Shown: positions 46,053-52,068, counted from the first letter of the stretch. The stretch: 64,000 nt of DNA from an uncultured Alphaproteobacteria bacterium (GCA_944389525.1 CALXMR010000001.1:228658-292657); one strand, 5' to 3'. Program-made: numbers and translations. Notes: generated from the letters alone by a model not told the origin.

Positions 46053-46457
46053 ATGGACAGTGAATATTTTGCATCGATAAATGAAGTGTCAAAGCGACTG
46101 TCTGTGCCGGCGCATACCCTGCGTTATTGGGAAAAGCAGTTTCCGGTGATTATTCGCCCGACAACGGGCGCCGGCGGGCGGCGATACTATCGCCCAGAAA
46201 CAGTCGACAGATTGACTGTGATTCGCGATTTGCTATACAAGCATGGTTTAACAATTGCGGGTGTGAAAAAGTTATTGCGCGATGGAAATTTTCCATCGTC
46301 TGGGGATGAATTTGTCGCCGCGGTGCCAACCAATGCTGCGCCGGCCGTTGCGGCGGCACCAGTCGCAACACACGGCACCACCGCAATAGATGCCCAGCAA
46401 TTAGACCGGGCAATAGAAATCTTGACCGCGGCATGTGATATATTAAAAAATGCATAA
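46053..46457 (+). CDS. MerR-family transcriptional regulator
   Basis: HTH INEVSKRLSVPAHTLRYWEKQF. Confidence 0.75.
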   Translation: MDSEYFASINEVSKRLSVPAHTLRYWEKQFPVIIRPTTGAGGRRYYRPETVDRLTVIRDLLYKHGLTIAGVKKLLRDGNFPSSGDEFVAAVPTNAAPAVAAAPVATHGTTAIDAQQLDRAIEILTAACDILKNA

Positions 46458-46536
46458 CGCCACGGAATGAAAAAAAACGCGCCGATTTTGGCGCATTTTT
46501 TATTTTTTTATAAATCTTTAAATAATCACACGACGA

Positions 46537-47118
46537 TTACTTTCGATTTTGTGTCGCGCTTTTTTGCAGTGTATTCAATCTGTGTTGATGATATTTTACC
46601 AGTGCACGATTGACATCCTGTTGAAAGTTGCGGCAGTTATTTTTTACCCGCACACGTAATGGCAACGCACGCACTGCGGCGACATCAATGCTGTCTTGGG
46701 TCAGTTTGTCTATTTTATCATAAACATTGCGTAATTGGTTATCCGCGGCGATGAATGCGCTGTCTGTACGAAATGCATCGTTAATAAATTTTTCTTCTAT
46801 GGAATCGCGATGTGCGCGCAGTTCCCGGACCGCCGGCGTATAGTATCCACGCGACATTTCCATTCCTTGGATTTGCTGGTCCAGTTGCTGGTATTGCGCG
46901 GTGCGCGCAGCGTTATTGCGCCCGCGTTCAACGGCATGTGTGTATGCAATGTCATATTCGTGTTCCGCATTTGGCTGTGCAAATTGACGCAAATAGTCCA
47001 TTTGTCCCTGGTCATATTGGGGTTCGCCATATGTTGCGATATATATCGCAATAACGAACGCAACAGTGGCCGCGATTCCGCCTATTGCCAATAATTTGTT
47101 TAATCCAGATCGTTTCAT
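46537..47118 (-). CDS. Membrane-anchored hypothetical protein
   Basis: Start at MKRSGLNKLLAIGGIAATVAFVIAIYIA (N-terminal TM anchor), then a helical periplasmic domain. Confidence 0.5.
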   Translation of the reverse strand: MKRSGLNKLLAIGGIAATVAFVIAIYIATYGEPQYDQGQMDYLRQFAQPNAEHEYDIAYTHAVERGRNNAARTAQYQQLDQQIQGMEMSRGYYTPAVRELRAHRDSIEEKFINDAFRTDSAFIAADNQLRNVYDKIDKLTQDSIDVAAVRALPLRVRVKNNCRNFQQDVNRALVKYHQHRLNTLQKSATQNRK

Positions 47119-47202
47119 AACAAAATCCTTTGATAATTCATACAGGTATGATAGTACAAAAATATAAATTGTCAAGATTTAAGTTCAAAAATATATTGGC
47201 AG

Positions 47203-47222
47203 TCCCAACGGGAATACTTCGT
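47203..47222 (-). other. Duplicated 3' end (18-20 nt) of tRNA-Glu; possible att-site remnant
   Basis: tggcagtcccaacgggaata, identical to the 3'-terminal nucleotides of the tRNA at 47365 and in direct orientation 143 bp away. The intervening DNA contains T-arm-like fragments in both orientations. Confidence 0.6.
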
Positions 47223-47364
47223 CACCTTGGCTCATTATGTGCGTGGCACATAACCGGCGTACTGCCGTCCGCCTTTCGCCGGCGGTTCGAACCCTTTGTC
47301 ACGTGTTCGATTCCCGGGGCATTCACATAATTCGTATTTGCTGGTTCCCAACAAATACAAATTA

Positions 47365-47439
47365 TGGCAGTCCCAACGGGAATCGAACCCGTGTCGCCGG
47401 AATGAGAATCCGGTGTCCTGACCGCTAGACGATGGGACC
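47365..47439 (-). tRNA. tRNA-Glu (anticodon read as CUC by hand folding; UUC not excluded)
   Basis: RNA sense GGTCCCATCGTCTAGCGGTCAGGACACCGGATTCTCATTCCGGCGACACGGGTTCGATTCCCGTTGGGACTGCCA. Cloverleaf with 7-bp acceptor, D-arm, T-loop TTCGATT, and an encoded CCA. Confidence 0.8.
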
Positions 47440-47635
47440 AGCGCCGTATATATTACAAATTATTTCCCATTTTGCAAATGGTAAATAAAAAATACCCCAA
47501 CGGGGTGTTTTTTATTTTGATTGTGCCTGACTAGCAATTCCCGAGCCAATTATTATAATGATTTAATCAAAATGGCACCTGAAATTGCGAATGTTAAACA
47601 GCTTTTAACAATTTAACGCATTAGATGACCGTGAT

Positions 47636-48838
47636 TTAATAATCGTCATTTTGATTTGCCTGATGTTTAATTATTGTCATTTCCATTTGTTTAACAATTT
47701 CTGATACTTTTGCGCGCATGCCGTTTGGGTTGATAATATAGTTTCCTTGCTCGGTCTGTAATGCGGTGGATTTTAATATATCGTTCAATTCTTGGTGCCA
47801 ATTTGAACGATTCATAAACAATTGGTTGCCTTCTAATACACACGCATACACACCAGCAATGTATGGTGCAGCAGAACTTTCGCCACCGGTCACCCTGTAT
47901 TGCCATCCGTTTGATTCCAGTGGTGTTGTACGCATATTGGTTGGGATGCCAATCACTTTGTCAGAATCAAATGGCAGATTCATCATCCGAATTGTTTCAT
48001 CGCCCGCGGCCTGTACATTTGGTTGAACATCTGTCATGTTCGGATTGTTACATGGCATAAAATCACGCCCAGATAGTGTCGCATCCTTCATATAATCAGA
48101 TGTGCATAAAATTATTTTTACCCCATCGGCTTCCAATTGGTCCAGTAAAGCACAGACCTCTGGTTGATACTTTTTGCGTGCCCCCCAACTGCATGACAAT
48201 ATATGAATTTTGTTTTCAGGTTTTTGTGCCTGATTAAATTTGATTACATTGCGCAAAACTTCCGCAATGTCTTTATCAAACTCTTTGCGTTCTTTGTATG
48301 ATGCCTTGGTAAAATAATAAACATTTGCATCCGGGGCGATGCCGGTGCTTTTGCCGACCAGTTGACCCATAACCATACTGGCATGTTTGTTTGTCGGCAA
48401 TTCTTGGTTATGTAATGGTCCTTGAATAAATTTTATATTATCGGCATATTCGGGATTGGTTGTGTCCAACATATTATCTATGACAGCAATATTTATACCA
48501 CGACCGGTCGCATTATTTATTTTGTTCGCAGGTGTTTTGGCGCGTTCCATTATTGCCATTGGATTAAATCCATCTGGCATTTTGTCTGGGGACGGCCAGA
48601 TTACATTTGTTGTCCACCCACGAATACCAGATTGTGGCAGAGATACATCCGACGCATAATCAAACAAATGTTTATATTCGCGCAAGTCGAGTTCAGATAA
48701 GTCGTGATAGTCCAATATAGGCGTGTTTTTAATCTGGTCAATACTGTGAACTTTGACGTACTGTGTGCCTTTCTGTTGCGCAGTTTCATGTTTAAGTCCG
48801 ACTATGGCATTGTAAAATTTCGTTATATAGTTATTCAT
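47636..48838 (-). CDS. Subtilisin-like (S8) serine peptidase without a signal peptide
   Basis: 400 aa. Asp motif GINIAVIDNM, His motif NKHASMVMGQLVG, Ser motif GGESSAAPYIAG. No N-terminal signal peptide. Confidence 0.55.
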   Translation of the reverse strand: MNNYITKFYNAIVGLKHETAQQKGTQYVKVHSIDQIKNTPILDYHDLSELDLREYKHLFDYASDVSLPQSGIRGWTTNVIWPSPDKMPDGFNPMAIMERAKTPANKINNATGRGINIAVIDNMLDTTNPEYADNIKFIQGPLHNQELPTNKHASMVMGQLVGKSTGIAPDANVYYFTKASYKERKEFDKDIAEVLRNVIKFNQAQKPENKIHILSCSWGARKKYQPEVCALLDQLEADGVKIILCTSDYMKDATLSGRDFMPCNNPNMTDVQPNVQAAGDETIRMMNLPFDSDKVIGIPTNMRTTPLESNGWQYRVTGGESSAAPYIAGVYACVLEGNQLFMNRSNWHQELNDILKSTALQTEQGNYIINPNGMRAKVSEIVKQMEMTIIKHQANQNDDY

Positions 48839-49062
48839 TTATTAACCTTTTATCCAATAATACCACATAATTCAATATATAGCAAAATGGCCACGACGGA
48901 TTCCAACTGAGTAAAAAGACTGGCAAACCAGTCTTTTTTTTGTTTGATTGGTTCGAATGTTCTCAAAAATTGGCGATTTTGAAAACCAACTTTCGAGCTC
49001 TGCGTGATGCTTGTAAATCCAACTAAAAACCGCCCTTGTGGGCGGTATTTTTTATTTTGGTT

Positions 49063-49135
49063 GGGGCGCACTCAATTCCCGCGGCGCGGGGCGGCTGCGG
49101 GGAAACCGTAACGATGTTACTGCGCCGGGGGTATA
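49063..49135. repeat. About 70-bp intergenic repeat R2, copy a
   Basis: gcgcactcaattcccgcggcgcggggcggctgcggggaaaccgtaacgatgttactgcgcc. Related to 51526-51596 through the shared gcgcactcaattccc and ggctgYggggaaaccgtRacgatKt.actgcgc blocks. Confidence 0.6.
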
Positions 49136-49188
49136 AAAGTCATTTCCCATGTTGCAACTGGTAAATATATTGTGATAGAATATAAAAA

Positions 49189-49719
49189 ATGATGGAAAAA
49201 AATATATTTATTATCGGTGTTCCACGTTCGGGTAAAAGCACATTGGCCAATATTGTATGCGACCGGTTTGGGTTCGGATTGGTGTCTATTGACGCCATTG
49301 TTGCGACTTTTTATAATGTGTTCCCAGAATTGGGAATGCACGCGGAACCAGAAAAAAGCGAACCAATTGTATCTAAATTTATTTTTGAATATATGCGTCA
49401 ATTGTCCGCGGAATCGCCAAACCGTAAATTTGTTATAGAAGGTTGTCATATCCAGCCCACCACGGTCGTTGGTAATATAGATTGTGAAAAATACGATGTT
49501 GTTTGTATGGGGTATCCAGGTCTGACGCCAGAACAATTTTTACTTCGTGTACATGGAACAAATTGGGCGGTTACCAAAAATGACGCAGAAATAATCCAAA
49601 TGGGCGAATGTTTTATTGCGCGTTCCCGTCAATACCAGGAAACATGCAAACAACATAATATAAAGTTTATAGATACATCAGATGGGATTCTGACCGCTTT
49701 GGGTGATTATATGAAATAA
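49189..49719 (+). CDS. P-loop NTPase/kinase-like protein
   Basis: Walker A GVPRSGKST at the N-terminus, 176 aa. The promoter is ttgcaa-17-tagaat within the repeat at 49142. Confidence 0.55.
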   Translation: MMEKNIFIIGVPRSGKSTLANIVCDRFGFGLVSIDAIVATFYNVFPELGMHAEPEKSEPIVSKFIFEYMRQLSAESPNRKFVIEGCHIQPTTVVGNIDCEKYDVVCMGYPGLTPEQFLLRVHGTNWAVTKNDAEIIQMGECFIARSRQYQETCKQHNIKFIDTSDGILTALGDYMK

Positions 49720-49746
49720 AAACATCATATAATATCGTGCATTTTT

Positions 49747-50352
49747 TTGTATGAATTTTCCAAAAAAATTGGTACAATAAGCCACATGAATTTCCCAACA
49801 ACCCTGAACGGTTTTTTTAAGTTAATTTTCAAGACTTTCCCCGTTTGGTTAATTTCTTTATTAGTTATTTCGGTATTATATCGTTCTGCAACGAATATAT
49901 CTTGGCCTTTTGTTAACAAGTGGATTGTAGAGATGTTTGAATCTGCGACCACTGGTGTTTTTTCTTGGGTGTTTTGGGCAGTTGTGGGGATGTTTGCCGC
50001 AACGCTTGTATTTGGGATATTAGAAAAACTTTTAACAGGGTGGTTCTTGCCGTATTTGTCGAAATATATAAACCAAACGTTATACGAGTATATTTATCAA
50101 AACGACACAGATTTTTAAGTTGGATTTATTGCGTTTTATATCGGCAAATTTTATCTGGTGGCCAGCGTCAAAGGGTTGCGATTGCGCGTGCGATATTAAG
50201 AGATGCGCCAATCTTGGTATTTGACGAGGCTACATCTGCATTGGATTCAGAACGGAAAAATTGTCGAGACTGGCACCCACAAACAATTATTGCGTGCAAA
50301 TGGTGCATACAGAAAATTGTGGAATATGCAAACAGATGGATTCGTGGCATAA
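49747..50352 (+). pseudogene. Degraded ABC exporter (MsbA-like). The N-terminal TM fragment is fused to the C-terminal signature/Walker B region with an internal deletion and a frameshift.
   Basis: Frame 1 carries TM helices. A second frame carries [16 protein letters not shown]...[15 protein letters not shown] third frame carries the typical C-terminus [27 protein letters not shown]. The Walker A/Q-loop and most of the transmembrane domain are missing. Confidence 0.75.
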
Positions 50353-50431
50353 CACGATGACATCAATCAGGTATGGATGCGAACAGACTCCACGCAGTAC
50401 AATATTTAATAAAAAATACAGGATGTAAAAA

Positions 50432-51205
50432 TCACTTTTCTGCCGCTGCGATTTTTTTACGCAATTCGGGTTCGTTTTTCTGAATCCAATCAAACGATTT
50501 ATTCATAAAATCGTAAATATTTGTCCGGCTTTGATACATTTTTTTCATGGTATCAAAAATCAGTTCATTATTTATCGTCATGTTATAAAAATATGAATAT
50601 GCAATATATTTTGGCTGTTCAATCAAGTCATTTATTTTTGAATTACGAATAATTGTTTCAACGACTATTTCAGATAAAAGCCATTTTAAGTTTGGGAAGT
50701 CATATTCGTCCGAATTATCGGAAAAATGCTGTTGCCAAAAATAAAACCATACGAAATGCGTTATTTCATGCAATGCTATCATCATTGCGTATCGGGGAAT
50801 ATCGCGATAATAAACACTGAAACTGTTATGTTCCAGATCGCGTGGGCAAATTGGATTCAACCCAACCTCCGCCAACATATTGTTCAATATACCCGAACAA
50901 TCATTACCAAATGCCGTCCTATACGCAGATTCCAGTTTTTCCACAATTAACGTATTCCAAGTGTCTTGAAATACTTTTACAGAATCATTTATAACATTTT
51001 CATATTTTTGTGATTCTTGTCGCATTTGCTCTGTTATATATTCAAAACGTTTGGATTCGGGCAAAGATTTTGCATGTTCATAGTTCAAATATGGGTATGC
51101 ATTAAACAGTTGTTTACGCCACCATTCTGGGGTGTTGTCTTGTTGATGATATAAAATAAATTCTATATCAGATTCAAAATCTTTCCGTGTCCAGTTTAGC
51201 TTCAT
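50432..51205 (-). CDS. Hypothetical protein with an HExxH zinc-metallopeptidase motif
   Basis: 257 aa, MIALHEITHFVWFYF, no signal peptide. Confidence 0.45.
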   Translation of the reverse strand: MKLNWTRKDFESDIEFILYHQQDNTPEWWRKQLFNAYPYLNYEHAKSLPESKRFEYITEQMRQESQKYENVINDSVKVFQDTWNTLIVEKLESAYRTAFGNDCSGILNNMLAEVGLNPICPRDLEHNSFSVYYRDIPRYAMMIALHEITHFVWFYFWQQHFSDNSDEYDFPNLKWLLSEIVVETIIRNSKINDLIEQPKYIAYSYFYNMTINNELIFDTMKKMYQSRTNIYDFMNKSFDWIQKNEPELRKKIAAAEK

Positions 51206-51227
51206 AATTCTCTACCTTTTAAATTTG

Positions 51228-51425
51228 TTATTTCTTGTATTCCCGTGCCAGTTTTGAAAATAACAAATGGTCTGTCCATGTACCATCGGTCAGGCGTGTA
51301 TATTCGCGCAAACAGCCCTCTTGCTGATATTCACTGGCCAGAATGGAGTTTTGGGACCGTGTATTGGTCACCATGCATTGCCGAGTTTTTAAATTTCGTT
51401 TGAATAATTGAAAGAATTTTTCCAT
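51228..51425 (-). pseudogene. C-terminal fragment of a GNAT (RimJ/RimL-like) acetyltransferase
   Basis: 65 aa ending ...GCLREYTRLTDGTWTDHLLFSKLAREYKK, typical of a GNAT C-terminus. The acetyl-CoA-binding core is missing. Confidence 0.45.
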
Positions 51426-51525
51426 ACAAGCACCATGTTTTTAATGGATTATACAATAAAAATCGCAAAAATACACCAAAATAGAAAATTTTCATAAAAC
51501 CGGCTTTTTAATATACGGTGCCAGG

Positions 51526-51596
51526 AGCGCACTCAATTCCCTCGCACGGCGCGTTGCGCCGGCTGTGGGGAAACCGTGACGATTTGACTGCGCGTG
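51526..51596. repeat. About 70-bp intergenic repeat R2, copy b
   Basis: gcgcactcaattccctcgcacggcgcgttgcgccggctgtggggaaaccgtgacgatttgactgcgcg. Confidence 0.6.
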
Positions 51597-51809
51597 TGCT
51601 TGTCAAATCTACTTGTTTTCGAACCGGCAACCGTTGGTTGCGGGCTGCGAACCGTGACCGCGAACCAAAAATAAAAACGCCACACGGGCGTTTTAATAAT
51701 GTTTAATATCAAGTGCGTCTGCCACACTTCGTTAAAACTTCGTGTGGCACTCCTTCGCGTGAACTATTCCGCTCCGGCTTGCCACCCGAAGCGTCACAGA
51801 CGCGAAGGG

Positions 51810-51883
51810 TGGTTGGGGCGCACGGATTCGAACCATGATAAAGAGAACCAAAATCTCTTGTCCTACCATTAGACGACACCCCA
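51810..51883 (-). tRNA. tRNA-Gln (anticodon UUG)
   Basis: RNA sense TGGGGTGTCGTCTAATGGTAGGACAAGAGATTTTGGTTCTCTTTATCATGGTTCGAATCCGTGCGCCCCAACCA. Anticodon loop TTTTGGT, T-loop TTCGAAT, encoded CCA. Confidence 0.8.
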
Positions 51884-52068
51884 AAAGCATGCATGATTAT
51901 AAATATATTTTGCATTTTTGCAATAACAATTTTATACCCGCACGGGTTGCAATTAAAAAAAATTTAAAAATTTATCATTTTTCCACTTGCATTTAATTCA
52001 TTAAAACATATAATCATTCAGGTTTTTAATTATTAAAGCGCTTGGTGCCGTAACCAAAGGGGGCAATC

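Follow-up and report, generated by a model that had tools for sequence, protein, structure and literature searches.

A composite accessory islet of two probable modules in a tRNA-Glu/tRNA-Gln hotspot of Candidatus Enterousia

The described systems closest to the locus analysed here are tRNA-linked genomic islands, cis-mobilizable elements (CIMEs) and the structured recombination sites (attC) of integrons. CIMEs are att-flanked satellites that have no recombination genes of their own and accrete at one site. The locus is located between the genes for tRNA-Glu and tRNA-Gln (positions 47440-51900) in a 64,000-nucleotide stretch of DNA, referred to as the window, whose host is Candidatus Enterousia (order Rs-D84), a gut bacterium with a reduced genome. 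It resembles tRNA-linked genomic islands in its tRNA-adjacent position, presence/absence polymorphism, lower GC content, direct repeats of tRNA 3' ends at the module boundaries and unrelated accessory cargo. However, there are differences: (i) the islet is only 4.4 kb long and lies between two tRNA genes; (ii) neither the islet nor the cargo of the 28 species compared contains an integrase or mobility gene; (iii) the boundaries also include a promoter box and a structured element, R2. The islet belongs to this known kind, and what is new in it are two unannotated enzyme families and the undescribed element R2.

The whole stretch is probably a composite accessory islet in a tRNA-Glu/tRNA-Gln recombination hotspot, formed from two independent modules and subjected to later decay. 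Its anchors and genes are the following:

47365-47439, minus strand: tRNA-Glu(ctc), left anchor of the hotspot (ARAGORN; Rfam, 63.8 bits).
47636-48838, minus strand: S8 subtilase-family serine peptidase, 400 residues, intact (Pfam PF00082, 44.4 bits against a cut-off of 21.8).
49189-49719, plus strand: P-loop protein with a nucleoside monophosphate (NMP) kinase fold, 176 residues, first gene of a former P-loop/ABC operon (Walker A motif GVPRSGKS; weak AAA_18 match).
49747-50352, plus strand: pseudogene of a half-size ABC exporter (transmembrane plus nucleotide-binding domain), about 606 bp in three segments (49747-50118, 50151-50258, 50245-50352).
50432-51205, minus strand: HExxH protein of an uncharacterised zincin-like family, 257 residues, intact (H146, E147, H150 and E179 invariant in 43 sequences).
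51228-51425, minus strand: C-terminal fragment of a GNAT acetyltransferase (Acetyltransf_3, RimJ/RimL-like), 65 residues (NCBIfam RimJ, positions 145-190 of 194, E 0.0012).
51810-51883, minus strand: tRNA-Gln(ttg), right anchor of the hotspot (ARAGORN, Rfam).

A sequence-only reading had described a degraded region bounded by two tRNA genes; every feature that it listed was found in place, and the degradation proved real for two gene remnants, those of the ABC exporter and the GNAT gene. The comparison of GC content proposed there revealed a poorer composition of the region (38.6% for 47440-51809, against 45.0% for the whole window), with the HExxH gene at 33.3%, more than 4 standard deviations below the mean of 32 other long open reading frames (ORFs; 45.8 +/- 3.0%). 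The same layout is present on six independent contigs from five gut metagenome samples (four ENA assemblies and one Logan run). Every contig with the exact P-loop or S8 protein shows this one layout; the arrangement is fixed within the species across several metagenomes, and within-species polymorphism of the S8 gene was rejected.

Species-representative genomes were scanned with the adjacent MerR protein, giving 76 loci, mostly of Candidatus Enterousia or uncultured Alphaproteobacteria; all genomes compared, designated by L numbers, are metagenome-assembled genomes (MAGs) or metagenome contigs. The order and orientation gyrA-merR-(membrane protein)-tRNA-Glu...tRNA-Gln-marR-OEP are kept in 28 of the 76 species loci, in which the distance between the two tRNA genes ranges from 16 bp to 6.3 kb. 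The gaps of these 28 species contain 52 cargo ORFs (of at least 110 residues), with few shared families and no relationship between species. The cargo found elsewhere includes APH kinases, ABC exporters, metallophosphoesterases, an autotransporter, a Slam protein, an M23 peptidase and a GIY-YIG nuclease. None of the 52 ORFs matches Pfam integrase, transposase or phage families, and ORF, Pfam and NCBIfam scans of 47440-51900 revealed no integrase or recombinase ORF. The conserved backbone order, taken together with the variable gap and the unrelated cargo, indicates a hypervariable accessory-gene hotspot; the same variability supports the earlier assignment of accessory DNA to a tRNA-bounded site. 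Three relatives (L022, L024 and L025) have empty sites, where tRNA-Glu, a direct repeat named D3, a hairpin, R2, a terminator and tRNA-Gln are contiguous.

The history of the cargo can be followed in L021, which possesses at the same site the P-loop gene (95% amino acid identity), an intact ABC exporter of 593 residues, the HExxH gene (95%) and the same GNAT stub, but no S8 gene. L017 has at this site a stub of the P-loop gene together with an ABC gene that is intact. In nucleotides the window matches L021 at 95.4% and 90.1% over the cargo, whereas the flanks reach 83.8% (gyrA side) and 74.5% (marR/OEP side). In L019 and L022, which are the closest species by the gyrA flank (90-94%), the site is empty and measures 794 and 259 bp, respectively. 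Because the cargo is more similar than its flanks and these two sites are empty, the cargo should be younger than the species split and exchanged between lineages after divergence. On this comparison of sequences it is cargo swapped after speciation and not an old resident. The age given to the island by the sequence-only reading is therefore not upheld, with cargo 90-95% identical to a species whose flanks are 75-84% identical and the nearest backbone relatives empty. Conserved synteny of the whole block, with intact orthologs of the supposed pseudogenes, had been named as the finding that would speak against an island. The block is not syntenic across relatives, in agreement with an island, while intact ABC orthologs do exist and confirm the pseudogene call.

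The division of the islet into modules is based on the repeats, hairpins and structured elements listed below:

47197-47364, no strand: 168-bp insertion at the tRNA-Glu 3' end (repeat search, self-blast palindrome).
47454-47487, no strand: D3-L, left copy of a 34-nt direct repeat, containing a palindromic TTGCAA (85% identical to D3-R).
47494-47506, read by the S8 gene as 47506-47494: hairpin T1, terminator-like, downstream of the S8 gene, with A/T runs on both sides (terminator scan).
49029-49046, no strand: hairpin T2, bidirectional and terminator-like, at the upstream end of the S8 cassette (terminator scan).
49058-49133, no strand: R2-A, partial, the 5' 76 nt only, at the junction of the two modules (weak covariance-model match, 38.7 bits).
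49134-49167, no strand: D3-R, right copy of the 34-nt direct repeat (promoter scan match, 49152-49181).
51516-51700, no strand: R2-B, full-length, about 175 nt plus a terminator-like hairpin at 51674-51694 (covariance-model match, 186 bits).
51701-51809, no strand: window-specific insertion of about 110 nt between R2-B and tRNA-Gln, with two short inverted repeats.

The S8 segment is bracketed by two copies of a hairpin joined to the R2 5' end (47484-47545 and 49025-49133), in addition to D3; in a self-comparison 47484-47543 is similar to 49025-49081. The left copy consists of T1 followed by a degenerate R2 5' end (47507-47545, about 80% identical). A promoter-like site of the S8 gene itself was identified at 48885-48857 by the promoter scan. 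An S8 ortholog, 83% identical, is found in L007 at another genome site, directly downstream of tRNA-Gln(ctg) and the same hairpin, T2. The DNA homology between the window and L007 (47514-49067, 80%) ends within 10 nt that are common to the tRNA-Gln 3' end and the R2 5' end. This placement and the point at which the homology stops, along with the absence of S8 from L021, indicate that S8 forms a separate tRNA-Gln-linked cassette, and other S8 homologs are located in yet other genomic contexts. The earlier description of a single island thus gives way to at least two modules, one of which is missing in L021 and stands beside a different tRNA-Gln in L007.

The repeat D3 marks the same boundaries. 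A 26-bp direct repeat flanking the S8 gene had been reported from the sequence; it is real, extends to 34 nt and forms the boundary of the S8-containing indel relative to L021. In L021 a single D3 lies between tRNA-Glu and the start of the P-loop gene, whereas the window has two copies with 1.68 kb between them. The segment 47442-47487, which includes D3-L, is 100% identical over 45-46 nt to the single copy of L021, L017 and L026. D3-R gives TTGCAA-N18-TAGAAT on the plus strand, directly upstream of the P-loop gene, and its detection by the promoter scan agrees with the -35 role already proposed for ttgcaa. D3-L is a probable promoter of tRNA-Glu on the minus strand, and a comparable promoter-like sequence, TTGCAA-N16-TATAAT, precedes tRNA-Gln at 51923-51896 (promoter scan).

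In the 168-bp insertion at tRNA-Glu, the first 19 nt (47197-47215) repeat the tRNA-Glu 3' end (47365-47383) exactly; a degenerate tRNA 3'-half in inverted orientation (47300-47328) and a hairpin are also present, the design seen for R2 at tRNA-Gln. The insertion is missing in L021 and L017 and present in L022. At the opposite anchor, window positions 51448-51697 correspond to L017 16212-16457 and those from 51810 onward to L017 from 16461 onward; R2 adjoins tRNA-Gln directly in L017 and L022.

R2 repeats had been noticed at 49063 and 51526, and the copies were recovered at 49063-49125 and 51524-51593, 79% identical to each other. R2-A opens with TGGTTGGGGCGCAC (49058-49071), a 14-nt copy of the tRNA-Gln 3' end, and shows 93-96% identity to the corresponding 5' portion of R2 in L021, L024 and L025. 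R2-B is 99% identical in L019 and L022, and the nucleotide identity of R2 ranges overall from 70 to 99%. A total of 35 strong full-length covariance-model matches was obtained from 33 related sources, the window included. Directly against tRNA-Gln(ttg) lie 29 of the 35, five more are elsewhere in the tRNA-Glu/tRNA-Gln spacer, and further matches occur beside tRNA-Ser and between two S8 genes (one each). No R2 was found in about 140 kb of other related DNA. A dispersed multi-copy miniature inverted-repeat transposable element is not supported by this distribution, tied as it is to the tRNA-Gln spacer. Two tandem R2 copies were observed in the inter-tRNA spacer of L067 and L070 (11278-11651); the first belongs to a subfamily with the 5' end TTATGTTATTGCTCATTC, which does not copy the tRNA-Gln 3' end.

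The 35 instances support for R2 a structure with a four-way junction (a closing stem and three hairpins) followed by a terminator-like hairpin. In the alignment, which was fitted to the model, 90% of the cells are paired, against 31-51% in slid controls. Compensatory changes occur in 22 of 46 pairs of this alignment, compared with 12.6 +/- 1.7 in shuffles, and none of 500 shuffles reaches the observed value. The signals for the two strands are balanced (36 G-U/U-G against 42 A-C/C-A cells), and RNAalifold energies are similar on both. There is no Rfam match to R2 at the gathering threshold, and none at E up to 10 on the R2-B region. A 6S RNA, signal recognition particle RNA, tmRNA, tRNA pseudogene or riboswitch was rejected in view of this result, the lack of an ARAGORN call and a four-way junction unlike 6S.

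The termini of R2 are related to the neighbouring tRNA. At the 5' end lie the 14 nt that repeat the 3' end of tRNA-Gln, and the closing stem is completed on its 3' strand by the inverted version of this sequence. The R2 homolog at tRNA-Ser(gga) in L095 (1439-1625) carries the tRNA-Ser 3' end as a 21/22-nt copy, with an inverted 7-mer that matches it. R2-like elements were also identified at tRNA-Tyr (L012, 3907-4309) and tRNA-Met (L013, 11808-11977), and the elements of L095, L012 and L013 each start with a 12-22-nt copy of the 3' end of their own neighbour tRNA. The pattern of direct and inverted termini holds for tRNA-Gln and tRNA-Ser, and an analogous layout, without clear homology to the R2 body, is present at tRNA-Glu and tRNA-Tyr. 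The L012 element follows an intact ABC exporter, and the L013 element is about 1 kb from an HExxH homolog.

An assembly of the islet can be proposed from these parts. The ancestral site would have been an empty spacer of about 250 bp, comprising a TTGCAA promoter box (D3), a hairpin terminator and R2, followed by tRNA-Gln. Module 1 (about 47.5-49.1 kb) would be a self-contained S8 cassette that brings its promoter and terminator with it. The small kinase and the ABC exporter, as an operon, would make up module 2 (about 49.1-51.5 kb) together with a GNAT gene and the gene of the HExxH zincin-like protein. The module junctions fall on duplicated spacer pieces: D3, the hairpin and the R2 5' end, itself a copy of the tRNA-Gln 3' end. 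Cargo may enter and leave by recombination at the tRNA-proximal repeats, either through homologous exchange via the conserved tRNA/R2 arms or through a recombinase, which would have to be supplied in trans because none is encoded in the islet. After acquisition, module 2 would have decayed by deletion, with about 1.2 kb lost from the ABC exporter, and the GNAT gene may already have been truncated before the module reached, or was shared with, L021.

Some findings weigh against this assembly. No integrase, excisionase or transposase was found, which leaves the proposed mobility without an identified engine. Stronger constraint could partly explain the higher identity of the cargo, although intergenic DNA and a pseudogene are included in it. 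The D3 copies are just 85% identical and the left R2-like copy (47507-47545) about 80%, so they are not fresh target duplications. Finally, the MAG and metagenome sources give misassembly at repeats some remaining probability, despite the six agreeing contigs.

Alternatively, the modules could be integrase-less, att-flanked (CIME-like) units that accreted in tandem through site-specific recombination at the tRNA-Gln-like att sites of R2, with an integrative element at another genomic site mobilising them in trans. Like CIMEs, the islet has cargo with att-like repeats and no recombination genes of its own, and its two modules are apparently in tandem. Three copies of the R2 5' end/tRNA-Gln 3' end bracket the modules (47507-47545, 49058-49083 and 51519-51541), in addition to the tRNA itself; an exact 19-nt repeat of the tRNA-Glu 3' end flanks the 168-bp insertion, and the elements at tRNA-Ser, tRNA-Tyr and tRNA-Met copy the 3' ends of those tRNAs. 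Such an origin is nevertheless considered rather unlikely. In contrast to CIMEs, no partner integrative element or integrase has been identified for the islet and no excision product shown; about 1.5 Mb of related loci at these sites contain no tyrosine or serine recombinase, the repeats are degenerate, and no enzyme is needed to explain the pattern if the conserved flanks recombine homologously. Exchange of cassettes at tRNA-proximal repeats, with deletional decay afterwards, has the best support.

Within the two-module islet R2 coincides with the cassette and module junctions. It could, tentatively and with odds clearly against it, represent an undescribed class of structured elements of Rs-D84, about 175-250 nt long and placed at tRNA 3' ends, whose termini copy the 3' end of the abutted tRNA in direct and inverted form as a closing stem. 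Such elements would serve as docking or recombination sites shuffling integrase-less cassettes (S8, the ABC/kinase operon, HExxH) among tRNA loci and species, acting in folded form as an att site at the nucleic-acid level, or as a small RNA that mimics a tRNA. The closest comparison is integron attC and other structured recombination sites. As in these, structure is kept by compensatory changes while the sequence drifts, and the element stands at cassette junctions. The differences relate to the length of about 175 nt, the four-way junction, the tie to tRNA 3' ends, the lack of an IntI-type integrase in the islet (Pfam and NCBIfam scans, 52 cargo ORFs) and the promoter-like sites of the S8 and P-loop genes themselves. 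R2 may in this way explain cassette movement without an encoded recombinase, and gene flux in reduced genomes would then have a new mechanism; if R2 has no such role, the locus is an ordinary tRNA-linked islet.

The S8 peptidase of module 1 possesses the catalytic triad D121/H152/S321, invariant in 20 aligned sequences including subtilisin BPN' and equivalent to D32/H64/S221 of subtilisin. It shares with subtilisin BPN' and the intracellular subtilisins the Asp-His-Ser residues in subtilase order and a Pfam score above the gathering threshold. It differs from subtilisins in (i) the absence of a signal peptide and of an I9-type propeptide; (ii) a family-specific N-terminal domain and a conserved C-terminal helix; (iii) the residue aligned to the oxyanion Asn155, which is not conserved; the best sequence match in the PDB has an E-value of only 5e-5. 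The N-terminal domain of about 100 residues (LDYHDLSxLDLR...WTxNVIWP) replaces the usual signal and propeptide. Inspection of the N-terminus revealed no hydrophobic signal-like stretch, as had been read from the sequence before. The 99 homologs are spread across the genus, with identities of 25-98%; for 97 the identity is at least 33%.

Other arrangements of S8 genes were observed among the relatives. A metagenome contig (L104, 1-1742) contains two S8 pieces, 94% and 91% identical to the window protein, around a full R2 element. In L009 (1-12537) an S8 gene lies beside an S8 paralog (35% identical), with an intact ABC exporter on the other side and, upstream, P2-like phage tail genes (tail X, gpD) and a pair of genes for a PLD nuclease and an EcoRI methylase.

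In module 2 the P-loop protein has the Walker A motif and, in its AlphaFold model (pLDDT 89.7), a fold matched by Foldseek in the PDB to UMP/CMP, adenylate and shikimate kinases (E about 1e-7, with 1.5e-7 for UMP/CMP kinase; TM about 0.6). On the motif and the modelled fold it is classed as NMP-kinase-like. Only 11 homologs were found. Its ortholog in L021 (95% identical) lies 27 bp upstream of the intact ABC gene.

The pieces of the ABC remnant correspond to residues 7-128, 493-528 and 563-597 of an intact 597-residue exporter. Two deletions separate them, the larger (about 1.1 kb) located between 50116 and 50151 and the smaller (about 0.1 kb) near 50258, and there is one frameshift. The intact ortholog of L021 (12463-14244, 593 residues) is 92-100% identical to the window remnants at its ends and signature region. 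Since an intact ortholog occupies the same site in L021, and also in L017, the window copy is a true pseudogene. A pseudogene of about 600 bp in three frames had been described earlier; status and size are borne out, while the three segments lie in two reading frames. Compared with MsbA/ABCB-class half exporters, the remnants match the N-terminus of the transmembrane domain, the signature/Walker B region and the C-terminus, and the L021 ortholog has both ABC_membrane and ABC_tran domains; the window copy differs in being a pseudogene of about 606 bp. The L021 protein scores below every NCBIfam equivalog cut-off, HlyB among them (MsbA, 360 bits against 602), and consequently is not an MsbA ortholog. 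By its domains and scores it is a generic MsbA/ABCB-class half transporter.

Genomes of the Candidatus Enterousia/Rs-D84 lineage are smaller than 1 Mb, and Candidatus Enterousia is described as showing no accumulation of pseudogenes (PMC12306168). At this locus the continuing turnover of accessory genes in a streamlined genome can be seen, and also the pace of their decay: an exporter intact in a sibling species is cut to 600 bp in the window.

The HExxH protein also carries an NPICPR motif invariant in the family alignment. It has no match in Pfam, NCBIfam, PHROG, PADLOC or PDB, and distant family members likewise lack Pfam domains. The AlphaFold model (pLDDT 95.4) gives weak fold matches only, to selecase, IrrE and SprT-like proteins (Foldseek E above 0.1, a core of about 90 residues). 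The similarity to minimal zincins and gluzincins (selecase, IrrE/PprI, SprT-like, Peptidase_MA) consists of HExxH on a long helix and an invariant Glu 29 residues downstream. In contrast to these, the protein is a globular all-in-one unit of 257 residues with the additional NPICPR motif, no Pfam family and no significant sequence or fold match. A profile search of a library of 1.84 billion proteins gave 698 clusters, and about 100 homologs (33-98% identity) are distributed across the genus in varied genomic contexts. The locus thereby draws attention to two widespread unannotated enzyme families: the S8 peptidases with a novel N-terminal domain and the 257-residue HExxH family.

The GNAT gene had been read as a C-terminal fragment, and this was found to be correct. 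Residues 21-65 align to positions 137-180 of the 184-residue Acetyltransf_3 GNAT of L013 (BLASTP, E 1e-6), and no significant alignment was obtained with the GNAT of L014. With approximately the last 45 residues aligned, compared with about 160-190 for a complete fold, the domain is incomplete, and the roughly 95 nt upstream, before R2-B, hold no N-terminal remnant in any frame. The S8, P-loop and HExxH genes are intact, and their products are probably functional enzymes of the cytoplasm.

In the sequence-only reading the S8 and HExxH proteins were called effector-like, which leads to a different account: one old island in terminal decay, with two signal-less proteases as effectors translocated by a type IV or type I secretion system (T4SS, T1SS). 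A tRNA-bounded site of low GC, two gene remnants, the absence of an N-terminal signal in both proteases and an ABC exporter near S8 here and in L009 would be compatible with it. The account is very improbable, as both families are broadly conserved (about 100 clusters of the genus at 55-98% identity, in varied loci, and the 698 library-wide clusters of HExxH) with invariant catalytic residues. ORF, Pfam and NCBIfam scans found no secretion-system genes in the region, and the block includes neither a membrane-fusion protein nor an outer-membrane partner nor a T4SS gene. The intact ABC protein of L021 has no peptidase domain (neither C39 nor CLD) and stays below the T1SS cut-offs; the cargo is younger than the species split and forms two modules, not one. 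A missing signal peptide is no evidence of translocation, and nothing marks S8 or HExxH as secreted effectors.

The neighbourhood of S8, its paralog and an intact ABC exporter in L009 also recalls a peptide-maturation or bacteriocin-type cluster, of which the islet would be a remnant, with a LanP-like S8, a LanT-like ABC protein and an accessory kinase and acetyltransferase; APH-type kinases and one RamC_N-domain protein are found in the hotspot cargo of other species. This origin is even harder to credit. No precursor peptide or modification enzyme was found, the ABC gene is intact without S8 in L021 and S8 occurs without this ABC type in L007 and L011, and here the two genes lie on opposite strands with separate promoters (promoter scan).

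A resistance or detoxification role of module 2 deserves more weight, though it too is judged doubtful. The kinase, the GNAT protein and ABC efflux would have acted against a small molecule, a xenobiotic, and decayed once selection ceased. The P-loop fold is similar to NMP and shikimate kinases, the GNAT is of the RimJ/RimL/Acetyltransf_3 type, the exporter belongs to the multidrug/MsbA class, APH phosphotransferases occupy the hotspot in three other species, and the kinase and ABC genes of L021 are only 27 bp apart. However, no curated resistance family was matched, all scores being below the cut-offs, and the HExxH protein falls outside the scheme.

A prophage remnant was rejected, the PHROGs matches being generic protease and kinase hits only and the phage tail genes of L009 not being at this locus. 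A defence system was likewise rejected: the only PADLOC matches were to a generic subtilase (E 4e-9) and, weakly and for the P-loop protein, to mad8.

Two observations concern the remaining part of the window. The 23S rRNA gene (194-2477; 5S at 2572-2686) seems to be without domain I. Positions 550-1399 and 1598-2789 of the E. coli 23S rRNA align to 261-1114 and 1211-2378 of the window, while positions 1-549 have no match anywhere in the 64 kb, and window positions 1-260 are AT-rich non-rRNA sequence. The Rfam 23S match covers the whole model in only 2284 nt. The gene could be split or fragmented, with its 5' piece elsewhere, or the anomaly could be an assembly artefact.

The second observation relates to the backbone, which is a mosaic. 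The gyrA gene has 82-94% nucleotide identity to relatives, with 98-99% amino acid identity in L019 and L022, and the nucleotide homology to relatives (L015-L090) ends at 46313 inside merR (68-74% amino acid identity). The gene next to merR encodes a membrane protein of 212 residues, only 22-47% identical among relatives (compared span 46313-47150). The halt of homology within merR and the poorly conserved membrane protein place a boundary, due to recombination or divergence, directly to the left of the hotspot.

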